Source: Microgenomates group bacterium (GTDB taxonomy: Bacteria; Patescibacteriota; Microgenomatia; Daviesbacterales; UBA10151). Taken from it: a stretch of 64,000 nucleotides of DNA. This document shows positions 13,029 through 32,313 of the stretch, in pieces. The translations under genes were made by a program, and so were the position numbers. The notes under the pieces are model-generated. The model was not told the DNA's origin. It did not search any database and saw only the letters and a list, made by a program, of their open reading frames with translations. The stretch's first letter is position 1. Each line of letters opens with the position of its first letter. The DNA lies in NCBI GenBank assembly GCA_041659805.1, contig JBAZXP010000001.1, positions 192,589-256,588 of the forward strand, read 5' to 3'.

Positions 13029-13439
13029 ATGTCCTTCTTATTAAAAACCATTACTTTAGTATTTTTTTCCCTAATTTTTCTTTACTCTTTTCAGCCTGTT
13101 TTTGCTGAAGCAGCTCCAGGAGGAGCAGGTCAACCTTGTCGCTATGAAGGTTCTGATGGCATTTTTACTGCGCTAGGTTGTGTGCCTGTTGAACCCTCAA
13201 AGTTTATTATGGCTGTCTCCCGACTGCTAGCCGGAGCTGGCGGGGGAGTTGCCTTACTATTGATGATTGCAGGGGCTTTTCGGATGATAACTTCCGGTGG
13301 TAATCCCGATGCAGTCAAAGCCGGATCAGAACAGTTTACTTCCGCCTTAATCGGCTTACTGTTCATTATTTTTGCTACACTGTTATTAAAGGTTATCGGG
13401 GTAGATATACTAAACCTACCTGGATTTGGAACAACATAA
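13029..13439 (+). CDS. VirB2/TrbC-like mini-protein, paralog 1 (signal peptide, two Cys, two TM helices around an SGGNPDAVKAG loop)
   Basis: Topology and the loop motif MITSGGNPDAVKAGSEQFTSALIGLLFIIFATLLL are shared with the five following ORFs. Confidence 0.55.
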   Translation: MSFLLKTITLVFFSLIFLYSFQPVFAEAAPGGAGQPCRYEGSDGIFTALGCVPVEPSKFIMAVSRLLAGAGGGVALLLMIAGAFRMITSGGNPDAVKAGSEQFTSALIGLLFIIFATLLLKVIGVDILNLPGFGTT

Positions 13440-13441
13440 TT

Positions 13442-13801
13442 ATGACACAACTACTAGCTCAAAAATTACAACTTCCCGGAGGAACAGAGGTAACATTACC
13501 TGTCGGAGGCAATTCTGCCATTGCAAGTCCCACAATCGGGGGAATCATCACTCCGGCGTTAGAGGCTGTTTTTTTGATCGCTTCTGTTTTAATGTTTGTC
13601 TGGATGGTTTGGGGAATCTTCCAATATATTTTTGCCGGCGGTGAAAAAGAAAAATTAGCCAAAGCCAGATCCCGGATTACCTGGGCTATAGTTGGTTTTA
13701 TTATTGTGCTACTTGCCTTTACTCTTTCCAGATATATACAAGAAATTTTCCCAGCTAGATCAGTGCCTATCACACCTATAACTGAACCGACAAATGATTG
13801 A
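13442..13801 (+). CDS. VirB2/TrbC-like mini-protein, paralog 2
   Basis: IFAGGEKEKLAKARSRITWAIVGFIIVLLAF, starting 3 nt after paralog 1. Confidence 0.55.
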   Translation: MTQLLAQKLQLPGGTEVTLPVGGNSAIASPTIGGIITPALEAVFLIASVLMFVWMVWGIFQYIFAGGEKEKLAKARSRITWAIVGFIIVLLAFTLSRYIQEIFPARSVPITPITEPTND

Positions 13802-14084
13802 TTTAGGACAACAATTTGGTTTTGCACTTCCAACGCTTGGTGCTGGTTTTAACCGGCTGGTCATGCCGGCTTTTGAAATTGCCGGTGTGGCAGTGATTAT
13901 TTACCTGCTTATAGGGGGGATTAAATATATGATCTCTGCAGGAGACAAGAATGCTGTTGCCTCCGCCCAACAAATGATAACTCATGCTATTATTGGTTTT
14001 ATTTTATTGATATTATTATTTGTAATAGTACAATTTGTACCGGAATTTTTTGGAGCTGGCGCACTCAGGATAATCGGAAGATGA
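13794..14084 (+). CDS. VirB2/TrbC-like mini-protein, paralog 3
   Basis: MISAGDKNAVASAQQMITHAIIGFILLILLFVIV. Overlaps its neighbours by 8 and 4 nt. Confidence 0.5.
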   Translation: MIDLGQQFGFALPTLGAGFNRLVMPAFEIAGVAVIIYLLIGGIKYMISAGDKNAVASAQQMITHAIIGFILLILLFVIVQFVPEFFGAGALRIIGR

Positions 14085-14419
14085 ACAAATTATTAGCAGC
14101 GGATTTTTCAAATATTATAGGAACAATTTCTCCTCCTGCAGCAATTAAACCCTTAGTGGACCAAGGTGGCCAAGGAGGCCTTAACACTGTTTTAAGAAAT
14201 GGTATTACCTTAATCTATCAAATAGCAATTGTTTTATTTCTTCTAATGATTCTTTTTAGCGCATTACAATGGATTATCTCCGGTGGAGAAAAAGAAAAGA
14301 TTGCTGCTGCCAGAGGAAGACTGACCAGCGCAGTGATTGGATTAGTAATCTTAGGTTTGGCTTGGGTGATTGTTTCTGTTTTAGGAACTATCACCGGAAT
14401 TAAACTGGGAGGAGTATAA
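14081..14419 (+). CDS. VirB2/TrbC-like mini-protein, paralog 4
   Basis: QWIISGGEKEKIAAARGRLTSAVIGLVILGLAWVIV. Confidence 0.55.
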   Translation: MNKLLAADFSNIIGTISPPAAIKPLVDQGGQGGLNTVLRNGITLIYQIAIVLFLLMILFSALQWIISGGEKEKIAAARGRLTSAVIGLVILGLAWVIVSVLGTITGIKLGGV

Positions 14420-14468
14420 AACTAACCACTCACTTGACAAGGTTTTTATTCTGTGCAAACATTAATTT

Positions 14469-14813
14469 ATGAGTCCTACACCAATTCCAACATTTAGCTT
14501 AAGTAATCTTGGTGTTGGCATTGCCAGCAATACCCCTATCGGAGACATTATTGGTAATGCTATCCGAATCATCATCATTATCTCTTTAATCGCAGTTTTA
14601 GCAATGTTAATCTTCGGAGCTTTTCAATGGATCATCTCAGGTGGTGAAAAAGAAAAGGTTGCTGCTGCCAGAGGAAGAATTACCAATGCCTTAATCGGAC
14701 TGGCCATTTTAGGCTTAGCTTTCGTGATTGTTACAGTAGCCGGTACTTTAGTCGGTATTAATATTTTTGAAAATATTCAAATCCCAAGCTTAGGTGATAC
14801 AACCGCAAGGTAA
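14469..14813 (+). CDS. VirB2/TrbC-like mini-protein, paralog 5
   Basis: QWIISGGEKEKVAAARGRITNALIGLAILGLAFVIV, nearly identical to the loop of paralog 4. Confidence 0.55.
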   Translation: MSPTPIPTFSLSNLGVGIASNTPIGDIIGNAIRIIIIISLIAVLAMLIFGAFQWIISGGEKEKVAAARGRITNALIGLAILGLAFVIVTVAGTLVGINIFENIQIPSLGDTTAR

Positions 14814-14855
14814 TTCTTCCTTGACCTAATTTCTTCTTTTTAGTACTGTTAAGGT

Positions 14856-15221
14856 ATGAAAAAATATCTGTCCTTTATCTTTTCTGTACTATCTCTTTTA
14901 CTCTCTGCACCCGCTTATGCAGCCACTACAGTAAATCCTCTTCCTGCCGGAAAGGATCAATTAATACAACTTATTACCAGAATTATTAATCTGGCAGCTG
15001 AGGCTGCATTCACTGTTTTGTTAATCATGATTATTTACGCAGGAATTAAGTTTCTAACTTCCGGTGGAGACCCGAAAGCAATCGGAGCAGCTTCTGGCAC
15101 TATCACATGGGCTCTTCTTGGTATTTTGTTCATGGCTATAGGTTGGTTATTCTTATTATTGATTAAAAATTTCACTGGCATTGACGTGACTAAATTCTGT
15201 CTTGATTTTCGTGGCTGTTAG
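14856..15221 (+). CDS. VirB2/TrbC-like mini-protein, paralog 6 (clear signal peptide ending AYA)
   Basis: LTSGGDPKAIGAASGTITWALLGILFMAIGWLFLL. Confidence 0.55.
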   Translation: MKKYLSFIFSVLSLLLSAPAYAATTVNPLPAGKDQLIQLITRIINLAAEAAFTVLLIMIIYAGIKFLTSGGDPKAIGAASGTITWALLGILFMAIGWLFLLLIKNFTGIDVTKFCLDFRGC

Positions 15222-15230
15222 TAATTACCA

Positions 15231-17336
15231 ATGAAATACCTGCCTTTGACCCTCTTACTTCTGATAAGTTGTTTTTTTTACATATTCCCTGGTGCAGTTA
15301 AAGCAGATGAATGTACCGGTAAAAATGTCGGCGATGCTTGTGGTGCATTCATAAGACAAATTGATGCCAACAATTGCATGCCATGCCATGGTAGCTGTAT
15401 AAACAGTGGCAGCACTTTATCTTGTAGTATGGCCGGAGGTAATGTCGGTTGTTCTCCGCAATATGCCTGCAGCGGGGTTAACCCTACCCCAACACCAATC
15501 ACTGCTCCACCCCAAGCTCAACAAGGAACTATTATTGGGGCACAAATTCCGCTTGAACAAGCACAAAGCACTATTAATCGAATGGTCCCTTCACAATATA
15601 GTTTCCAATGGCTTAAATATCAATTTTCATTAGGAAGTGGACAGAACTTAGGAGAGGCTGTAACAGCCGCAAAATCGTCTGCTGCCGGAGGAGGAAGGAA
15701 TTATAGCGTCTTGGTTTCAGTGGCAAAAAACGGTGCAGGAATTGAAACCCTAAAAAATCCTGATACTTACCCTCCTGAACAAGCTCCTGAATACTATACC
15801 CACAAATATTGTCCGTATAATGAAGAACTGGAAACATATTCTGTCAACCCTCATAATTGCGGCACTGACCTTGTTAGTGGAGAACCTCAAACCTGCTATG
15901 ATTCACAAACTGCTCAACCAAAATCAGATAACGGTTATATAAAATTCAGAGATCAGATGGAGGCATTAGCCTCAACTTTAAATTCATTAGGAGTTGAGGC
16001 GGTTGAAATCTGGAATGAGCCTAACTTAGCAGTGGAATGGACTAATCAGGGACTTGGTCCAATCAGCCCCCAAAATTATGCAAATTTTTTTATCTGTGGA
16101 GCTAAAGGCCTTAAAAAAGGTGGCTACAATGGGAAAATTATTACTGCAGCACCCTCTCCCGGTGCAGGTGGAACAGGAAATATGGATGATCTGGCTTTTT
16201 TTGATGCTTTTTACAATGAACTTAATTCCCAGGGTCAATTAGGATTAGTTGATGCTTATGGGTGGCATGGGAATGTAACAAGAGATATCTCACCCACCAG
16301 CAGTGATGTAAACGGATTTCAAAGATTCTCAAGGATACTTGGCAAAGGTAAACCTGTTTGGCTAACAGAATTTGGTTGGGATAGAAGTATTTTACCGGGA
16401 TCAGAAGAACAAAAGAGACAAAAACAGGGTCTTTATATTGCCCAGGCTTATGGCGTAATTAACAGCAACTTCTTAAATAAAGTTACAGCTATGTTTGTCT
16501 GGAATTTTGGCTTTACCAAAGCAGGGAGGACTGAAGCAGAATTTGTTGATTGGGATATAGAAGGAATTACTCCTCAAGGACGGCTTTGCCAACCAAATGC
16601 TCCCATTGACCCCAGATATAGAGGAGACCGGAGAAGCACCACTTATGTACAGGATAAATCTCTTTCGGATGATGAAATTGTTGCAACTGTGGCGGGCTTA
16701 GCCTTAGTACCAAAGACAGTAATCGAAGACGCCAACCAGAGTGCCAGGACAATTAGTCAAACCAAGGTTGATACCAAAAAAAGCTTTTACAGCAATCTTC
16801 CGTTACTTGGTGATTTTTTGAGCCAAATTGCTAACCTGATCGATTTTTTCCGCTGTATGATTGGTCAATCAGAGTTTTGTAAACCGAATTTATCAATTGG
16901 TATTGCAGAAAAGATAGAAGGAGGAACTGTTCCAGGAAAAAATACAGCCTCATTTGCGTCGGAAGCTCAAATATTAGGACAGGCCGCCATTCCCAATGGT
17001 ATGGAATTAGTTCCTGAAGAAAGAGATTGTAATATAGGATTTCAGGGAGAAGAACCGGATCCCGGTCATATCAGATTAAACACGCTTAGTGAAACAATGG
17101 GAACTACCACTGGCTTTTATGGTAATAATATGCCTGATTTCAAAACTTTAACCCCAGACGATTGGTTAAATATAATAAAAGACAGAATGCAACAGGAAAA
17201 CTTAAATATTGGCAGTAAACTATTTAATCAGGATAAAAGATCCCCTGATTTATATGTCAGAAAACAGGTGATGTGTAAAGGACTATATCCGGAAGGCATT
17301 TGTCCTTTTGAACCTTCCCCTACACCAACCATATAA
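15231..17336 (+). CDS. secreted clan GH-A (GH5-like) glycoside hydrolase with an N-terminal Cys-rich module and PT linker
   Basis: Signal peptide, then about 10 Cys within the first 60 residues after it, then a PTPTPITAPP linker. Catalytic-type motifs VEIWNEPN (acid/base NEP) and VWLTEFGW (nucleophile TE). Confidence 0.6.
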   Translation: MKYLPLTLLLLISCFFYIFPGAVKADECTGKNVGDACGAFIRQIDANNCMPCHGSCINSGSTLSCSMAGGNVGCSPQYACSGVNPTPTPITAPPQAQQGTIIGAQIPLEQAQSTINRMVPSQYSFQWLKYQFSLGSGQNLGEAVTAAKSSAAGGGRNYSVLVSVAKNGAGIETLKNPDTYPPEQAPEYYTHKYCPYNEELETYSVNPHNCGTDLVSGEPQTCYDSQTAQPKSDNGYIKFRDQMEALASTLNSLGVEAVEIWNEPNLAVEWTNQGLGPISPQNYANFFICGAKGLKKGGYNGKIITAAPSPGAGGTGNMDDLAFFDAFYNELNSQGQLGLVDAYGWHGNVTRDISPTSSDVNGFQRFSRILGKGKPVWLTEFGWDRSILPGSEEQKRQKQGLYIAQAYGVINSNFLNKVTAMFVWNFGFTKAGRTEAEFVDWDIEGITPQGRLCQPNAPIDPRYRGDRRSTTYVQDKSLSDDEIVATVAGLALVPKTVIEDANQSARTISQTKVDTKKSFYSNLPLLGDFLSQIANLIDFFRCMIGQSEFCKPNLSIGIAEKIEGGTVPGKNTASFASEAQILGQAAIPNGMELVPEERDCNIGFQGEEPDPGHIRLNTLSETMGTTTGFYGNNMPDFKTLTPDDWLNIIKDRMQQENLNIGSKLFNQDKRSPDLYVRKQVMCKGLYPEGICPFEPSPTPTI

Positions 17337-22540: not shown

Positions 22541-23725
22541 ATGGAACCACATCCTATTCCACAAAATGTAACTTCTTTTGAATTCCACTTAGTAGGGGAT
22601 ATGACTCTAAAACAATTTATTTATTTAGGAGCCGGACTCGGTACTGCTTATTTACTATACGCCACACTCTTTTTTTCAATCCCTGTTTTAGCTATCCCAT
22701 TAATCCTTATTTCCAGCGTGCTTGGAATAGCTTTTGCTTTTGTGCCTATTTACGACCGGCCTTTTGATCATTGGGTTGGTGCTTTTTTCAGAGCTGTTTA
22801 TTCACCGACAAAGGGTTCCTTTAAACTAAGATCTAATCCTAAGTTAAAGGTTACTCCTAGTGATCCTTTTTTACAAAACAGGCTACAGCTATACCTTTCT
22901 TCCATGGGAATGACTGTTAATCTTTGGGATAAGCAAATTCCGACTGCACCTGCCACATCTACCCCCACTCCAACACCAGCAATCCCTGAGATTAAGGAGA
23001 TTAAAGAATCAGAAAAACAGGCTACCTTAGCAGAAAATATCTTAACTAAAACTTTAGGGAATATCCAAGCCCAAGCTCAACCGGAAAGTACCAGTCATCT
23101 ACCTTCCCAACAGGAATTAACAAATCTAGTGGAGATGGCTAGACAAGCACAAGTCTTGCAGGGAAAAATATCTGATACAGAAAAATTAATTAAACAGATG
23201 ACAACCACAACTAAGCAGACAGAAACAACCCAGATTCAGTCCAGTTTAAAAGCTCTCTTACAACAAACAGAAGAGTTATACCAAAAAACTTCCAGCATGA
23301 CTCAGGCAACAACACATACAACTGCTGCCCAACAACTGCCGCAAACAGTACCGATAACACCGGCCCCACCTATTTTAACTCAACCGGCAGTTGCTCCGAA
23401 GGTAACAATAGTCCAACCTTTGGCACACAAGGAAACGCAGGTAGTTTTAACCTCAACTCCGAATGTTATTAACGGCATTGTCGGTGATGATGCCGGAAAT
23501 TTCCTGGAAAATGTCATCGTAATTATTCACGATAAAGACGGAATGCCTGTCCGGGCTTTAAAAACAAATAAATTAGGCCAGTTTGCAGGAGCGACACCTT
23601 TACCTTTAGGTGTTTATACAATCACCCTGGAAAAAGAACATTTTACCTTTCAAACATTACAAATAACGCTTGATAATTCAGTGCTTGGACCTCTTCGAAT
23701 AGTTGCTAAAAGAGGAGGACAATAA
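22541..23725 (+). CDS. PrgI/VirB3-like two-TM N-terminus fused to a long Gln/Thr-rich coiled region and a C-terminal carboxypeptidase-regulatory-like beta-sandwich domain
   Basis: N-terminus FEFHLVGDMTLKQFIYLGAGLGTAYLLY resembles the PrgI family (FGLTLRQF...). C-terminus GIVGDDAGNFLENVIVIIHDKDGMPVRALKTNKLGQFAGATPLPLGVYTITLEKEHF. RBS AAAGGA before the ATG. Confidence 0.5.
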   Translation: MEPHPIPQNVTSFEFHLVGDMTLKQFIYLGAGLGTAYLLYATLFFSIPVLAIPLILISSVLGIAFAFVPIYDRPFDHWVGAFFRAVYSPTKGSFKLRSNPKLKVTPSDPFLQNRLQLYLSSMGMTVNLWDKQIPTAPATSTPTPTPAIPEIKEIKESEKQATLAENILTKTLGNIQAQAQPESTSHLPSQQELTNLVEMARQAQVLQGKISDTEKLIKQMTTTTKQTETTQIQSSLKALLQQTEELYQKTSSMTQATTHTTAAQQLPQTVPITPAPPILTQPAVAPKVTIVQPLAHKETQVVLTSTPNVINGIVGDDAGNFLENVIVIIHDKDGMPVRALKTNKLGQFAGATPLPLGVYTITLEKEHFTFQTLQITLDNSVLGPLRIVAKRGGQ

Positions 23726-23726
23726 T

Positions 23727-24632
23727 TTGACTACCAGCCAAGAATTTATTCCGATTAGCGATGTCAGTAAAAATTTAGTATTTCAAAAAGACGGATCTGT
23801 AGCAATTATCCTCTCTGTCTCAGCCGTTAATTTCGCACTTCTGTTTGAAACTGAACAAATTTCCATTATTGATTCATTCGCAGGTCTTTTGAATTCCTTA
23901 TCCTTTCCCATTCAAATTGTAATTTATTCCAAAATCATGGACGTTTCTTCCTATTTGCATACAATTGACAATGCCCTTGCCCGTCAAGCCAACCCTCTAC
24001 TTAAATCAATGACCTTAAAATACCGTGATTTTGTGGAAAAAAGCATTAAAGATAACAATGTTCTGGATAAAAGGTTCTATGTTTGCATTAAATTAACGTC
24101 TTTAGAATTAGGTCTACTTCCTTCCAATATGGAAGAAAAAACAAAAAAAGTTACAACACTCCTTGAACCAAGACGGGACCATTTGATCAGACAACTAGAC
24201 CGACTTGGCTTAAAGGCAAAGCAGCTAACAACAGAGGAAATCATTAAATTATTTTATGAAATCTATAACCCGCCCATTACAACAAGTGCTGACTTACCTG
24301 TACAAAGCAATGTCAAGGCTACTCCCTTATTGGAAATCCATCAGCCACCCGCCAACCCTCCGACGGACGCACCAAGGGTAGAAAATAATCTGCCGCCAAA
24401 ACTCCGGCCGATTAAACCGGCTTTGACTCAACCGAGCATTCCAGCACCTGCTGTAAAACCGACAGCTCAAACAACGATTCTTGTTCCGGTCGCCACGGCA
24501 GCACCGGTAGTGACGGTTCCAATCACACAACCGCCAGTCAATCCGACACCAACGCCTATCCTTAACCAAGCCGCTCCGCAACACAATAGCCCTTTTGTGG
24601 TAGAAGAGCTACCTGATGACGATGGATCCTAA
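23727..24632 (+). CDS. VirB4/CagE/TrbE-family protein, N-terminal portion, ending in a Pro/Thr/Ala-rich tail
   Basis: FIPISDVSKNLVFQKDGSVAIILSVSAVNFALLFETEQISIIDSFAGLLNSLSFPIQIVIY matches the N-domain of Gram-positive VirB4 homologs. TTG start at 23727 preceded by an AGAGGAGG RBS. The track ORF begins at an upstream in-frame TTG at 23703. Confidence 0.6.
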   Translation: MTTSQEFIPISDVSKNLVFQKDGSVAIILSVSAVNFALLFETEQISIIDSFAGLLNSLSFPIQIVIYSKIMDVSSYLHTIDNALARQANPLLKSMTLKYRDFVEKSIKDNNVLDKRFYVCIKLTSLELGLLPSNMEEKTKKVTTLLEPRRDHLIRQLDRLGLKAKQLTTEEIIKLFYEIYNPPITTSADLPVQSNVKATPLLEIHQPPANPPTDAPRVENNLPPKLRPIKPALTQPSIPAPAVKPTAQTTILVPVATAAPVVTVPITQPPVNPTPTPILNQAAPQHNSPFVVEELPDDDGS

Positions 24633-26379
24633 GCAAAAACAACTAACATTTGAAGATGCAGTGGCACCCTATGAAATGGAGATGGATTTTTCGTTCCTAA
24701 AAATTAATCACCGCTATTTACGTTCTTTTTTTGTATCTGCTTATCCCCGTTATGTTGAACCAAACTGGCTGGAACCGTTAATTTCTTTTGAACATTCAAT
24801 GATTTTATCCATGTTCATCTACCCCACCAGCTCAGCCGGAATCTTAGATGATTTAAAAAGAAAAATTGCGGAAATGGAGGCCACTATCCAAACTGATCTA
24901 GAACGGGGACGAGTTGTTAATCCAACTGTAACAATAGCACTTGATGACGCCAAGCAGTTACAGGAACAACTAGCTAAAGGCTCGGAACGATTTTTCCAGT
25001 TTAGTTTATATATCGATGTCCCTGCAGATTCCATAGAAGAGCTAAACAATAAATCACAATTAGTCCAATCCACCCTGGGTAGTATTTCAATTACTTCGCA
25101 TCCGTTAATGCTCCAGATGAAAGAAGGGTTTGAAAGCACTTTGCCTTTGGGACAAGACCCTTTGTATTTGGCACATAATATGGATACCACCTCTCTTGCC
25201 ACCACTTTTCCTTTTGTCTCATCAGAGCTTACTTCTCCGGACGGAGTAATCTATGGCATTAATGCACATAACGATTCCTTAATTATTTTTGACAGGTTTA
25301 GTCAGGAAAACGCCAATTCAGTAGTTTTTGCCACAGCCGGAGCCGGAAAATCTTATTTTGTGAAACTGGAATCACTGCGTTCATTGATGCTGGGCGCTGA
25401 AATAATTATCATTGATCCGGAAAAAGAATATGTCGATTTAGCCAATGCTGTGGGAGGAGATTATATTAATTTCTCTACTGCCTCCCCGGTTAAAATCAAT
25501 CCTTTTGACTTGCCTGATATAGCCAACAGCGAAGAAGACGAGTTGGGAAGAAAGATTTTATCTTTAACCGGTTTTTTAAGGTTGGTTTTAGGCGATTTGA
25601 CTGCCAATGAAGTTGCAGTTTTAGACCGGGCTTTAAATGCCACTTATAAATTAAAAGGTATTACTGCCAATGTTTTTAATAAAGCTGACCCTACCAGTAA
25701 ACAAAAAATCGAAGCTCCGTTAATGGAAGATTTATATAAGATTTTAATCGGTATGGAAGACACTATGGCTGGCAGTCTGGCAATCCGTTTGGAAAGGTTT
25801 ATTAAAGGCTCTTTGGCAGGCATTTTTTCTGCCCAATCCAATATCAATATCAATAACCCTTTTACTGTTTTTTCGGTTCGTGAATTGCCTGATCAACTGC
25901 GACCTTTGGCAATGTATTTAATATTGGATTATATTTGGACCAAAATCAGACGCGAGATTAAAAAAAGAATTTTAGTAGTGGATGAAGCCTGGTATATGAT
26001 GAAGTATCCTGATTCAGCTTCTTTTTTAGTGGAGATGGTCAAGCGGTCCCGAAAATATTACCTGGGTGTCACCACCATATCTCAGGATGTGGAAGACTTT
26101 TTAGGGCAAGACCGGGGTAAGGAAATTATCTCCAACTCAGCTATGCAAATTTTATTAAAACAAGCGCCTGTTTCCATTGAAAAAATAGGAGCTGTTTTTA
26201 ATCTGTCTCAAGGAGAAAAAAGACTACTAACCACTGCAGGTGTCGGACAAGGGCTCTTTTTTGCAGGCAATGTGCATATTGCCATGTCAATTGTGGCCTC
26301 AGATGAAGAACATCAGCTGATCACTACTAACCCAAGAGAAATTTTAGAACGCCAGGAAAAAGAAAAAGGAGATAAATAG
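24616..26379 (+). CDS. VirB4/CagE/TrbE-family ATPase, central and C-terminal portion
   Basis: AYPRYVEPNWLEPL, Walker A ATAGAGKSYFVK, Walker B RILVVDEAWYMM. Overlaps the upstream ORF by 17 nt in the +1 frame. Confidence 0.8.
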   Translation: MTMDPKQKQLTFEDAVAPYEMEMDFSFLKINHRYLRSFFVSAYPRYVEPNWLEPLISFEHSMILSMFIYPTSSAGILDDLKRKIAEMEATIQTDLERGRVVNPTVTIALDDAKQLQEQLAKGSERFFQFSLYIDVPADSIEELNNKSQLVQSTLGSISITSHPLMLQMKEGFESTLPLGQDPLYLAHNMDTTSLATTFPFVSSELTSPDGVIYGINAHNDSLIIFDRFSQENANSVVFATAGAGKSYFVKLESLRSLMLGAEIIIIDPEKEYVDLANAVGGDYINFSTASPVKINPFDLPDIANSEEDELGRKILSLTGFLRLVLGDLTANEVAVLDRALNATYKLKGITANVFNKADPTSKQKIEAPLMEDLYKILIGMEDTMAGSLAIRLERFIKGSLAGIFSAQSNININNPFTVFSVRELPDQLRPLAMYLILDYIWTKIRREIKKRILVVDEAWYMMKYPDSASFLVEMVKRSRKYYLGVTTISQDVEDFLGQDRGKEIISNSAMQILLKQAPVSIEKIGAVFNLSQGEKRLLTTAGVGQGLFFAGNVHIAMSIVASDEEHQLITTNPREILERQEKEKGDK

Positions 26380-28166
26380 TGGCTGCTTTAAACCCCAGAC
26401 TAATAGAAGACACTATACATTTAATTGAAACATACCAACGAAGCGGAGAAGGGTCTGCTTTTAGAAGGCGCTTTGATATGGCAATTGCCAGAGATGTCAA
26501 CGCCACCTATAAAAACCGGCCTTTAAAATTATATTTCGAGATATTGGCAAGCACCAATGAAGAAAAATTTGGGGACTCTTACAAAGATATCCGCCGGCTC
26601 GTTAAACATGATAACGAAGGAATCATCAAAGAAACACTTCTGAAAGTAAGCCCTAATGATTTAAATAATCTGGCCGACCATTTAGAACAAGCAAAGGAAA
26701 ATATTAATTCAACGACTTACCCAAAGGAGGAGGTCGATGATATTAATAAAATTGAAGCAGATTCCAAAGACCGGATCCAAAAACGAATTGCACATGCAAA
26801 AAGATTAGACCAAACCGAATATCTTGCAGTTACTAAAAAGACCCCAAAAGAAATAGAAAAAGAGGAAGAAGAGGCAGAAGCAGAAACAGGCCCCGGCTCT
26901 TCTCCTGAGCAGAAAAAATCATACAGCCCGGCAACCGAAGAAGAGAAAGCTAGGTTGATGGCAGCCCTGAATACACCAAAAAAAGAAGTTCCCAAGAATA
27001 TATTGGTTGGGCCGAGAGGAGAACCGTTAATAACCATCCCTCAAGAACGATTAATCGAACCGGAGGAGATAACCTTTGAACCAAGAGCTCTTGAGCCAAC
27101 AACCCCATCATTGCCTCAAACACCTGACTTAGGCTTTGCCAGAAGAATTATTAAAACAGGGAAGGTAACGGAAACCGCCGGAGCAGCAGAGGCAGGCATC
27201 AGTTTTACTACAGGAAGAGTGGCGGCAACAGGTGCTGCCAGAGCAGGAGTAATTGCAGCCGAGGGTGGAGCACGGGCTGTTGCCAGATTAGGTGCAGGAG
27301 CTGCTGCCAGAACCGGTGCGGGAGTATTGGCTAAACTAGGATTTTCAGCTGCGACAGGGATAGCTACAGGTGGCGTCGGTTTAGTAATTGGATTAGCTAT
27401 AACCGCAGTCACTACTTTTGGCGATCAAATAAAAAAACTGGGAAAGCTTGTTCTTCAGGTTACAATTGCTATTTTTTGTGTTTTTATTTTAATGTTTTTC
27501 GGGAATTGGGGAGAGAAAATGAACTCTTTACTGCCTCCTTATTCAATTGGGGAGGCTGCAGGTTTACCAACAGCCACACCAACAGGGGCTATTACACCAA
27601 CCCCTACAGGTCCAATAACACCCACCCCAGAAGCCGCTATTGCGAGCTGCCCCATTCCCGGCGGAACAATTACCTGTGGAAGTTTAAGCACTCCCAGAGG
27701 GGGCTGTGCACACTGTAGCGCTGCTTATAAAAGCACGTCTTTTTACCGCGATACATGTGACAGAGACATAAACGGAAGAATAATAGAAAATCGTTGTTTA
27801 TGTGATAAATATCCTGCCACATCTACAGGTCTTGATATTGCAGGAGCAGGAGGGACTCCAATTATATTGCCATCTATTAATAACCATATCGTTGTTTGGA
27901 CCCATCTTTCTCCTGAAGAAGGTAACAGCAACCAGGCAATCCAAAAATTCACAGGCATAGATCAGACTACCGAACAAAGCTATTATTTACAATTTCACCA
28001 TACTAAACCCGGTTCAGGGAGGTCTGGTCAATCAGGACAGGTTGGTGCTAATATTTGTAGTACTACTGCCTGTGGAGAAGAACATGTTCATGTTCAGATA
28101 GGTAATTCCGGTAATAGCCCCGGCAGCACAGGGTGGATGGATGCAGCAGCAACCATGTGTCAATAA
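26379..28166 (+). CDS. membrane protein with a Gly/Ala-rich repeat region and a C-terminal M23/LytM-like peptidase domain (first motif His apparently replaced)
   Basis: GTG start overlapping the upstream TAG. TGxAxAG repeats (AGAAEAGISFTTGRVAATGAARAGVIAAEGGARAVARLGAGAAARTGAG), a TM helix, then STGLDIAGAGGTPIILPS...YYLQFHH...EEHVHVQI, resembling M23 HxGxD / HxH elements. Confidence 0.5.
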   Translation: MAALNPRLIEDTIHLIETYQRSGEGSAFRRRFDMAIARDVNATYKNRPLKLYFEILASTNEEKFGDSYKDIRRLVKHDNEGIIKETLLKVSPNDLNNLADHLEQAKENINSTTYPKEEVDDINKIEADSKDRIQKRIAHAKRLDQTEYLAVTKKTPKEIEKEEEEAEAETGPGSSPEQKKSYSPATEEEKARLMAALNTPKKEVPKNILVGPRGEPLITIPQERLIEPEEITFEPRALEPTTPSLPQTPDLGFARRIIKTGKVTETAGAAEAGISFTTGRVAATGAARAGVIAAEGGARAVARLGAGAAARTGAGVLAKLGFSAATGIATGGVGLVIGLAITAVTTFGDQIKKLGKLVLQVTIAIFCVFILMFFGNWGEKMNSLLPPYSIGEAAGLPTATPTGAITPTPTGPITPTPEAAIASCPIPGGTITCGSLSTPRGGCAHCSAAYKSTSFYRDTCDRDINGRIIENRCLCDKYPATSTGLDIAGAGGTPIILPSINNHIVVWTHLSPEEGNSNQAIQKFTGIDQTTEQSYYLQFHHTKPGSGRSGQSGQVGANICSTTACGEEHVHVQIGNSGNSPGSTGWMDAAATMCQ

Positions 28167-29148: not shown

Positions 29149-30249
29149 TTAACTTAAATTAACAGGCATCACAATACACTCCAAACCTTCTTCCCCCATT
29201 GGTTTAAAAATAGAGGCAGAAAGCGGCCCGGAAAGTTCAATTATTACCTGGGAAGAGCTAAAGGCAGACAGGCTGTCTTGTAAATACTTAGTATTAAAAG
29301 AGATTTGAATTTCTCCACCCTCACACTCTGCATCAATCTCCTTTTTTTGTGATCCCAACTCTTTTGTTTCTGAGGTTAAAACCAGCTTTTTATCTAAATT
29401 CTGTAATTTAACTGTATTAGCCTCGCCTCTGGCAAAAACCGACGCCAGCTTAACTGCTTTTAGGAGCTCGCTTCTGTCTGTAATGATCCTAACCTTAATC
29501 TCTGTTGGAATAATCTTCTCCCAGGCAGGAAATTGTCCTTCAATTAAGCGGGAAGAAAGCTGGGTGTTACCAAAAGAAAACACAATTTGGTTCTGATCAT
29601 CAGAAACAGCTACTTTAATCTCGTCAGACTCATCTTCTCCAATCAACCTAATAACTTCTTCGAAGGTGCGCCTGGGAACCAAAGCCTTAAAACTGGAATC
29701 ACTTTCTGTGACTACGCTTTTGTGGGCCAGTCTATATCCGTCTGTTGCCACAAGTTGTAATTTCTTATTATTTATCTCGGTTAAAATACCGGTTAAAATC
29801 GGCCGACCATCATCAACTGCCGCTGAAAAAATCACTTCCGGCAAGGCCTTCACAAGTAATTTAGGATCAATAGAGGCTGCCTGCTTACCTGATAAGGGAA
29901 TATTAGGAAATTCGGTAGCACTGATTCCGTTTAAAGAAGATGAAAATGTCGGAGTAGTGAGTTCAACAGATTCATCACTGGCACTTATTTCTATTTTTTC
30001 ACCGCTTAAATTAGAAATTACATCAACCAGCATCTTTGCGGGAATAGTTATCTCGCCTTCCTCAATAACATCTGCTTTCACAGATTTCACGACACCGATT
30101 TCTAGATTAGTGGCTGATATTTTAACTCTGTCTGAATCTGCCTGAATCAAAACATTACCCAAAACAGGCAGTTGAGACCTGATTCCGGCCGAACGGGAAA
30201 CAGAAGAAAGCACTGGCATCAAATCCTGTTGTAAAATCGTAAATTTCAT
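29149..30249 (-). CDS. dnaN: DNA polymerase III beta sliding clamp
   Basis: MKFTILQQDLMPVLSSVSR...ATNLEIGV is a canonical DnaN N-terminus; 366 aa. Confidence 0.9.
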   Translation of the reverse strand: MKFTILQQDLMPVLSSVSRSAGIRSQLPVLGNVLIQADSDRVKISATNLEIGVVKSVKADVIEEGEITIPAKMLVDVISNLSGEKIEISASDESVELTTPTFSSSLNGISATEFPNIPLSGKQAASIDPKLLVKALPEVIFSAAVDDGRPILTGILTEINNKKLQLVATDGYRLAHKSVVTESDSSFKALVPRRTFEEVIRLIGEDESDEIKVAVSDDQNQIVFSFGNTQLSSRLIEGQFPAWEKIIPTEIKVRIITDRSELLKAVKLASVFARGEANTVKLQNLDKKLVLTSETKELGSQKKEIDAECEGGEIQISFNTKYLQDSLSAFSSSQVIIELSGPLSASIFKPMGEEGLECIVMPVNLS

Positions 30250-30978: not shown

Positions 30979-32313
30979 TTACTGGGCAGTTAAGGCTTGC
31001 TTGAGCTCTATTAAAACCCTCTGGATTTCCCTGTCTGTGCCAGAGGCAGTCCTGATTTTATCCACACCGTGCAAGATGGTGGTGTGATCCCTTCCGCCCA
31101 ATAAATCCCCGATTCTCTCATAGGGAATTTTGCACTCCTCATACAAAAGATACATAGCTAATTGTCTGGGGAAAACCAACTCTTTTTTGCGTCTGGGGCC
31201 GGTAATATCTGACATTTTAGTATTAAAATAACGATTGATTTCTGAAAAAACCTTTTTATGGTCCAATTTCATACTGGATGGCTGAGGTTTTCCCAGGTGG
31301 TTTCTGATAAATTCAGGGGTCAGTGCAAGATTTTGTAATTTGGCAATCTGAATAATTTGCATCAACTTCCCTTCCAGCTCTCTGGCGTTTGTTTCTACCA
31401 GCTCAGCAATTAGAATCATACATTCTTCTGGCACAGCATCTCCTTTTTCCCTGCATCTGGCTTTGATAATAGCGACCCTGGTATCAAAATCCGGTAGTTG
31501 AATATCTACCATCAAACCTCCCTGGAATCTGGAGGCGAGTCTTCCTTCCAGTTTTTGAATTTCATTTGGCGGTCTGTCTGAGGTTAAAATAATCTGGGCA
31601 TTTTTAGCCTGAAGCTCATTAAAGGTATGGAAAAACTCTTCCTGAGTTGAATCTCTGCCGGAAATAAACTGGACATCATCAATTAAAAGCAGTCCGCAAT
31701 TGCGGTATTTAGCCCGAAAATCCCCTGTTCTTTTGGTTTGAATGCTTTGGATAAAGTCGTTCATAAATTTTTCCGAAGAGCAATAAATAATCTTCAGGTG
31801 TGGGTTTTTAGCAACTAAGGCATTTCCTACACCGTGCATTAAATGAGTTTTTCCTACTCCTGTGCCGCCATAAATAAATAAAGGATTATAGGTAGTGCCG
31901 GGATTATTGATTACGCCCTGGGCTGCGGCATAAGCCAAGTTATTTGACAGGCCAACTACAAAGTTTTCCACAGTATATTTTGGATTAAGACCTGTTTGAG
32001 ATAAATCAGGAGCTCTGACTTCAAAATCTAACTCCAGATCCAGCCCTGAATCAGATCCGCTTTTAGAGTTTAGCGAAGAATCGACTCTAAATTCTATGTT
32101 CAGGGTTTTTCCAAAGGATTGCTCCACAGCTTTGGCTAAAACATCAATATATTTTGTGGAAAGTTGTTGTTTAATAAAAGCTGAGGGGACATTGATTGTA
32201 ACCTTGTTGTCCTCGATAGATTCGAGAGTGGTTTTAGAAAACCAGGTACGGTAGTTTGCCAGGGTAACCTGGTCCTTAAGGATTTTTAAAGTATTTGACC
32301 ACTGTTTTTCCAT
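30979..32313 (-). CDS. dnaA: chromosomal replication initiator DnaA
   Basis: AAA+ Walker A GGTGVGKTHLMHGVGN, box VII and a C-terminal DNA-binding helix. N-terminus WFSKTTL. Confidence 0.95.
   Translation of the reverse strand: MEKQWSNTLKILKDQVTLANYRTWFSKTTLESIEDNKVTINVPSAFIKQQLSTKYIDVLAKAVEQSFGKTLNIEFRVDSSLNSKSGSDSGLDLELDFEVRAPDLSQTGLNPKYTVENFVVGLSNNLAYAAAQGVINNPGTTYNPLFIYGGTGVGKTHLMHGVGNALVAKNPHLKIIYCSSEKFMNDFIQSIQTKRTGDFRAKYRNCGLLLIDDVQFISGRDSTQEEFFHTFNELQAKNAQIILTSDRPPNEIQKLEGRLASRFQGGLMVDIQLPDFDTRVAIIKARCREKGDAVPEECMILIAELVETNARELEGKLMQIIQIAKLQNLALTPEFIRNHLGKPQPSSMKLDHKKVFSEINRYFNTKMSDITGPRRKKELVFPRQLAMYLLYEECKIPYERIGDLLGGRDHTTILHGVDKIRTASGTDREIQRVLIELKQALTAQ

Follow-up and report, generated by a model that had tools for sequence, protein, structure and literature searches.

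A TrsD-like protein and a short VirB4, encoded by overlapping genes, very probably form one type IV secretion ATPase in a Microgenomates bacterium

Introduction

Two overlapping open reading frames of a Microgenomates group bacterium, here called ORF1 and ORF2, share between them the sequence of a VirB4-type ATPase of a type IV secretion system (T4SS), and the locus raises the question whether they represent one gene broken by a sequencing or assembly error, one protein completed by a programmed ribosomal frameshift, or two proteins. Both frames lie in a stretch of 64,000 nucleotides (nt) from contig JBAZXP010000001.1 of GenBank assembly GCA_041659805.1 (positions 192,589 to 256,588 of the forward strand); this whole stretch is referred to as the window, and all coordinates below are counted from its first letter. 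An earlier note, made from the letters of the window alone, had recognised the VirB4 family and listed these three possibilities, the last of them as a genuine two-subunit VirB4 with translational coupling. From the comparisons reported here, two separately translated polypeptides very probably make one VirB4-type T4SS ATPase jointly. What the note had not recognised is that such a two-gene arrangement is already known as TrsD + VirB4 (TrsD/TraD and TrsE/VirB4) from Patescibacteria and some Gram-positive plasmids.

Results

ORF1 and ORF2 supply consecutive parts of one VirB4

The two reading frames and the parts recognised in them are the following.

23727..24632, + strand: ORF1, TrsD-like, 301 amino acids (aa) from a TTG start; TAA stop at 24630..24632; the longest-ORF start is TTG 23703
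23727..24272, + strand: folded domain of ORF1, residues 1 to about 182, corresponding to some 180 residues at the start of the N-terminal domain of VirB4
24273..24629, + strand: disordered Pro/Thr/Ala/Val-rich C-terminal extension of ORF1, residues from about 183 to 301, as judged from composition and predicted confidence
24616..26379, + strand: ORF2, short VirB4 (TrsE-like), 587 aa from an ATG start, in the +1 frame relative to ORF1
25339..25353, + strand: Walker A motif GAGKS, ORF2 residues 242-246 (alignment A2)
25972..25986, + strand: Walker B VVDEA region, ORF2 residues 453-457 (alignment A2)

The motor of the ATPase is carried by ORF2. Its Pfam matches are P-loop_TraG (87.9 bits, cutoff 25.8), AAA_10 and DUF87, and the NCBIfam model NF045971 of CD1110-family VirB4-like ATPases was matched with 379.7 bits (cutoff 325) over positions 181-734 of 752. 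The structure of a VirB4 C-terminal domain, PDB 4AG5, matched residues 209-570 with an E-value of 1e-46. The note had assigned both Walker motifs to ORF2. They were located as GAGKS at 242-246 and VVDE at 453-457, and in a 60-sequence alignment (A2) G242, G244, K245 and S246 of Walker A and V455, D456, E457 and A458 of Walker B are invariant. ORF2 thus consists of the second half of the N-terminal domain (residues 1 to about 210) and the P-loop ATPase domain (about 210-575), and does not contain a complete N-terminal domain of about 400 aa: positions 1 to about 180 of every full-length VirB4 model are missing from it.

The match of ORF1 to known families is more distant. Its first 200 residues gave a weak match to the Pfam family TraC_F_IV, and residues 5-181 matched positions 16-200 of 201 in the NCBIfam TrsD/TraD model NF041427 with an E-value of 3.4e-6; the precomputed Pfam family PF26593 is assigned to nearly all ORF1 homologs. 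AlphaFold2 predicted residues 1-180 with high confidence (predicted local distance difference test, pLDDT, mostly above 90) and the remaining 120 or so residues as coil. When the fold of the domain was searched against the PDB, the top 14 matches were all to TrwK, the VirB4 of R388. Both sequence and predicted fold indicate that ORF1 corresponds to the N-terminal portion of VirB4.

On three NCBIfam models of full-length VirB4 proteins the two products fell into place one behind the other, as follows.

CD1110 model, length 752: ORF1 covers 2-170, ORF2 covers 181-734
TraC-F model, length 800: ORF1 covers 9-178, ORF2 covers 198-741
Mycoplasma integrative and conjugative element VirB4 model (VirB4_plasma), length 894: ORF1 covers 104-281, ORF2 covers 290-893

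The tiling is consecutive and free of overlap, with the break at about model position 175-190. The same was seen on a naturally fused protein, a VirB4 encoded by a Carboxydocella plasmid, of which the ORF1-family hidden Markov model (HMM) covers residues 7-175 and the ORF2-family HMM residues 181-747. In the VirB4 of R388 the N-terminal domain comprises residues 15-400; VirB3 wraps around this domain, and the domain forms the dimer interface (PMC9259494). Since ORF2 has only about 210 residues in front of its motor, compared with residues 15-400 in R388, the cut lies in the middle of the N-terminal domain.

These data also bear on the idea that ORF2 is a complete VirB4 and that ORF1 is an accessory paralogue, a second copy of the VirB4 N-terminus working as a factor of its own. 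The literature gives this idea some room, as TrsD is called there only 'remotely homologous to the N-terminal portion of VirB4' and has no assigned function (PMC12102498). Yet ORF2 sets in only at positions 181-290 of the models, and the part that it lacks is exactly the part found in ORF1; the domain of ORF1 and ORF2 add up to about 770 aa, which matches the 754-787 aa of fused relatives, and the approximately 210 residues before the ATPase domain of ORF2 contrast with the approximately 385 residues of the N-terminal domain in R388. We therefore regard a duplicated N-terminus as highly unlikely.

The split is conserved among Microgenomatia species

A locus scan with one genome per GTDB species yielded 80 loci with ORF2 identities of 54-94%, which span Daviesbacteria, Curtissbacteria, Woesebacteria, Gottesmanbacteria, Levybacteria, Chisholmbacteria and other groups of the class Microgenomatia. 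Two separate adjacent ORFs were found in 79 of them, each from a different species. The earlier note had named orthologs with a continuous frame across the junction as the sign of an error; with a single exception, the orthologous loci are split instead. The lengths of homologous proteins tell the same: the closest 120 homolog clusters of ORF1 are all 222-405 aa long, and those of ORF2 all 531-618 aa (67-95% identity). An exhaustive search with the ORF1 domain returned 1762 clusters (50% identity) at E <= 1e-3. Of the best 150 representatives, 149 stand alone and carry the domain N-terminally with a low-complexity tail that varies behind it; the sole ATPase fusion among these 150 is P0296.

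That a single virB4 was broken by an error in sequencing or assembly, or by a pseudogenising frameshift of recent date, is conceivable in that the break follows a Pro/Thr-rich low-complexity region, where indel errors are plausible. We reject an assembly error because the same split is present in 79 of 80 independent species-level genomes, which various research groups assembled by various methods and which include complete chromosomes. Furthermore, the junction is unchanged in the nearest relative, L001 (94% identity). Strong purifying selection acts on both halves, with 67-95% ORF2 identity over the 120 clusters and intact Walker motifs, and the ORF1 protein is on record in identical form from two contigs. 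The chance that the split is an artefact or a fresh lesion is practically negligible.

The fused forms are a protein of 767 aa at locus L064 (3431..5734 of CP066685.1, a complete Levyibacteriota chromosome) and P0296 with 787 aa. Their mutual identity is only 53%, and split neighbours with ATGA or TAATG junctions match each of them at 75-80%. As both are nested among split relatives, the halves can evidently function in one chain. To judge by their sequences, the two look like independent secondary re-fusions at ATGA/TAATG junctions, or possibly like assembly errors of 1 nt.

Many of the records bearing the locus (L002, L005, L010, L011 and others) bear the title 'uncultured Gammaproteobacteria bacterium', and two carry archaeal names (L041 Bathyarchaeia, L080 Nanoarchaeia). 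These titles probably reflect mislabelling or mis-binning, not true taxonomy.

Variable junctions argue for two starts of translation

The elements around the junction, together with the genes on either side of the pair, are listed below.

23711..23719, + strand: Shine-Dalgarno site AGAGGAGGA for ORF1, read from the sequence, with GGAGG at 23714..23718, 8 nt 5' of TTG 23727
24591..24620, + strand: motif PFVVEELPDD at the end of the ORF1 tail, conserved in relatives
22541..23725, + strand: gene of a VirB3-like PrgI-family membrane protein, the first of the trio VirB3-like, TrsD-like, VirB4
26379..28166, + strand: same-operon gene downstream of ORF2 in the ORF list, whose GTG start overlaps the ORF2 stop codon by 1 nt

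The coordinates, the +1 frame and the 17-nt overlap of ORF1 and ORF2 given in the note all match the sequence. The ORF2 frame is closed by a TAG at 24601..24603, four codons 5' of ATG 24616, and therefore any frameshift that fused the two frames would be confined to 24604..24629, in line with the narrow interval of about 24 nt that the note had proposed. Its choice of TTG 23727 as the start of ORF1 was likewise supported by the GGAGG located 8 nt upstream, by the annotation of the public protein P0001 ('Microgenomates group bacterium', identical to ORF1 at 100% identity and coverage) as 301 aa, and by the closest orthologs, which align from residues 1-4. The packing is tight on both sides of ORF1, with a gap of 1 nt after the stop of the PrgI-like gene (TAA 23723..23725) and then the 17-nt overlap. 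ORF2 has a Shine-Dalgarno-like site, GAAGAG at 24603..24608, which is formed by the Glu-Glu codons of the ORF1 tail motif, and its ATG sits within the Pro-Asp-Asp codons of the same motif (CCT GAT GAC).

Junctions were compared by measuring distances from the first ATG after the upstream stop. A heuristic that took the ATG nearest to the alignment start picked internal ATGs; its gap values were discarded, and the relative frames and sequence contexts were kept. Over the 79 split orthologs and the window, ORF2 is in the +2 frame relative to ORF1 in 41 cases, in the +1 frame in 33, and in frame 0 with an intervening stop in 6. In the 79 split loci the overlap is of the ATGA type in 18, of the TAATG type in 10 and at least 8 nt long in 20; the genes are separated by 1-14 nt in 23 and by 50-190 nt in 8. 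In the orthologs the conserved ATG of ORF2 is preceded at 7-9 nt by its own Shine-Dalgarno-like site, GAGGAG or GAAGAG.

A programmed +1 ribosomal frameshift within 24604..24629, giving a single VirB4 with an internal Pro/Thr-rich linker, would fit the +1 relationship and short overlap of the window, which are common to 14 of the 16 Daviesbacteria-clade loci (window counted), and it could appeal to the two fused relatives found elsewhere in the class. A conserved recoding site is ruled out, however, because the ortholog junctions differ in frame, in overlap or gap (up to 190 nt) and in stop-codon context. Even within the Daviesbacteria clade the codons at and before the stop vary (TCC TAA, CCC TAA, CCG TAA, ACC TAA, AAC TGA), and L013 and L010 of this clade keep the split in the absence of any overlap; the downstream frame, moreover, has its own ribosome-binding signal and conserved ATG. 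The junction RNA (24585..24704) was predicted to fold no more stably than shuffled sequences (z = -0.07), and an Rfam search of 23400..25000 gave no match at E <= 1. Measured against prfB-like programmed +1 frameshift genes, the locus has neither a conserved frame nor a conserved shift site, and its downstream frame has an initiation signal. There is only a very slight chance that the two frames are joined by programmed frameshifting. The simplest reading of these junction sequences would be independent but coupled initiation, as in tightly packed operons. Thus, among the possibilities raised in the note, the evidence supports two subunits, their coupling being the part that we infer, and speaks against both the programmed frameshift and the error.

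The Pro/Thr-rich tail belongs to ORF1 alone

The note had placed the split inside a Pro/Thr-rich insert of VirB4 and had estimated the tail of ORF1 at about 90 aa. The tail is real but longer, about 110-120 aa (residues from about 182 to 301), of which 65% are P, T, A, V, S or Q; it is predicted as coil devoid of secondary structure, with pLDDT of 52-66. To call it an insert is misleading: in fused relatives (Carboxydocella VirB4, L064, P0296) the breakpoint is nearly free of linker, conserved sequence begins right at the start of ORF2, and the tail measures only 6-40 aa in most of the other lineages with a split. Its length in the 79 split loci is 69-167 aa in Daviesbacteria and up to 220 aa in Curtissbacteria; in cluster representatives it reaches about 500 aa. 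Composition, length variation and predicted structure describe the stretch as a lineage-variable, disordered C-terminal extension of ORF1.

The end of the tail is conserved. Tail motifs were read from the TrsD-like gene ends of L001-L014 and L036 and from proteins P0270-P0359. Daviesbacteria tails end in PF[VI]VEEL-x-[DE][DN], a motif found in 114 of the 120 closest homolog clusters; in another clade the tip reads LPP[IL]xEI[K], and many lineages have YTTP[LM]V directly after the folded domain. In the 16 Daviesbacteria-clade loci the tip motif is unchanged at the protein level and varies at synonymous sites, and L010 and L013 retain it although their two genes do not overlap; these two facts place it under protein-level selection. 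For the same reasons, the view that the tip is a mere by-product of the ribosome-binding site and start of ORF2 fails for the motif as a whole.

The PF[VI]VEEL tip probably docks onto a partner. More tentatively, and with doubt prevailing, the tail may be a flexible tether whose tip docks on a partner such as the VirB4 motor domain, the coupling protein or a substrate; the C-terminus set free by the split would then have evolved into a recruiting element peculiar to the T4SS of these epibionts, which is essential and non-conjugative. The disordered linker and acidic tip of SSB offer a comparison for the proposed tail with its acidic-hydrophobic tip. This tip is the only part of the finding for which no description was found; we regard the variable tail with its conserved tip as a small testable lead and not as a discovery.

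The same arrangement in known systems

The staphylococcal plasmid pSK41 has the gene order of the window: TrsC (VirB3-like), TrsD (227 aa) and TrsE (672 aa, DUF87). The ORF1-family HMM covers residues 33-218 of the 227 of TrsD (E 6e-6 at Z = 1e6), and on TrsE the match of the ORF2-family HMM begins at residue 36; the breakpoint in pSK41 is therefore the same. The trs genes are tightly spaced too, with a 14-nt gap. TrsD and TrsE of pSK41/pGO1 are equivalent to TraD and TraE of pIP501-type systems, of the MPF_FATA class. The sequence similarity to ORF1 and ORF2 is remote, though (E about 1e-6, 27-31 bits), and pSK41 TrsD has neither the long Pro/Thr-rich tail nor the PFVVEEL tip. A 'TrsD' match on a Bacillus thuringiensis plasmid (H17) was set aside as a reference, as it lies in a rearranged region with a group II intron, and pSK41 was used instead. 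While the system of pSK41 is a plasmid conjugation machine with a relaxase, the loci of Patescibacteria are chromosomal, lie beside dnaA/dnaN and are mostly devoid of a relaxase (PMC12102498).

These Patescibacteria systems were described by Quinonero-Coronel et al. in 2025, who named TrsD as the most abundant T4SS component in the group, with 1,664 of 2,272 homologues associated with VirB4, and listed a TrsD homologue as essential in Southlakia epibionticum; T4SS loci were often found near dnaA/dnaN and with tandem VirB2-like pilin genes (PMC12102498). The window, which likewise comes from the class Microgenomatia, contains those components (VirB4, TrsD, PrgI/VirB3, tandem VirB2-like pilins) in the same vicinity to dnaA/dnaN. 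It is one more example of the described Patescibacteria T4SS, from which it differs in nothing essential. In the main text of that paper we did not find the end-to-end tiling, the variable tail with clade-specific C-terminal motifs or the re-fused forms, and the words 'split', 'truncat' and 'fragment' do not occur in it. A literature search for 'split VirB4' returned no papers, and the main text of Guglielmini et al. (2014) does not contain 'TrsD'.

Full-length VirB4 proteins (TrwK of R388, the CD1110 family, TraC-type proteins and that of Carboxydocella) share fold, domain order, Walker A and B motifs and an upstream virB3 with the window. They differ in being a single chain of about 750-820 aa, whereas the break in the window falls about halfway along the N-terminal domain and not at its boundary with the C-terminal domain. 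VirB3-VirB4 fusions, known from some conjugative systems, are a change in the opposite direction, fusion and not fission, and are absent here; mentioned in the literature, they show that evolution readily alters the covalent links among VirB3, the VirB4 N-terminus and the ATPase (PMC12102498).

Neighbouring genes

ORF2 has other T4SS genes as neighbours, the PrgI-family gene at 22541..23725 and a pilin-like array at 13029..15221. The PrgI-like protein matched Pfam PrgI above the cutoff (residues 5-88, E 5.5e-8) and also CarboxypepD_reg (310-378), within a C-terminal beta-sandwich-like domain. For a VirB3-like PrgI protein it is unusually long (394 aa), and it contains a P/T/Q-rich linker; Pro/Thr low-complexity linkers recur in at least three consecutive genes of the operon. 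The product of 26379..28166 (+ strand) is a membrane protein of 595 aa. Its N-terminal region is acidic and its C-terminal domain rich in Cys and His; it also has a hydrophobic segment rich in Gly and Ala and a Pro/Thr linker. The protein had no Pfam or NCBIfam match and might be a cell-wall hydrolase (VirB1/CHAP-like) or another component of the channel.

The array at 13029..15221 (+ strand) encodes six tandem small proteins of 136, 119, 96, 112, 114 and 121 aa with two hydrophobic segments each, several of which share an 'SGGEKEK..AAARGR' loop. It looks like a set of divergent VirB2-like pilins, as reported for Microgenomatia (PMC12102498). Directly after it, 15231..17336 (+ strand) encodes a secreted protein of 701 aa whose N-terminus is rich in Cys and which has a Pro/Thr linker and matches Glyco_hydro_cc weakly. 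It may act on the cell wall or the host surface as a hydrolase connected with the T4SS. On the other side, dnaN (29149..30249, - strand) and dnaA (30979..32313, - strand) lie 3-6 kb downstream of virB4, and the T4SS locus therefore adjoins the presumed replication origin.

Discussion

From these results, a model of the ATPase may be proposed. ORF1 would supply the first 180 or so residues of the VirB4 N-terminal domain, and ORF2 the rest of this domain together with the Walker A/B motor domain. By analogy with R388, the TrsD-like protein would most likely be the membrane-proximal, VirB3-binding half of the N-terminal domain. Translational coupling through the tight packing of the PrgI, TrsD and VirB4 genes probably keeps the proteins in matched amounts, and the products of ORF1 and ORF2 would assemble non-covalently at the cytoplasmic face of the membrane.

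Several points weigh against this model. An AlphaFold2 model of ORF2 alone was poor, with a mean pLDDT of 61. On the curated TrsD model ORF1 scores only 27 bits, where the cutoff is 200, and by this NCBIfam threshold it counts as a distant relative of TrsD and not as a member. Most loci of the Daviesbacteria clade share the +1 frame and an overlap of 8-26 nt, and a low level of frameshifting in this clade is possible on the sequence evidence. Finally, what the data show directly are the homology, the tiling of the models, the conserved split and the diversity of junctions; from these we infer the physical association of the two products, their coupling and the binding of VirB3. Even so, the formation of one VirB4-type ATPase from two separately translated polypeptides is very probable in our judgement.

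For annotation, ORF1 should be named a TrsD-like protein (VirB4 N-terminal subdomain) and not a 'hypothetical protein', and the two genes should carry no label of pseudogene, frameshift or misassembly. For the VirB4 family, the locus shows that the N-terminal domain tolerates a break halfway along and keeps its function. This bears on the way in which VirB3, the N-terminus of VirB4 and the motor come together in the T4SSs of monoderms and of Patescibacteria, where these systems are essential for epibiotic growth.

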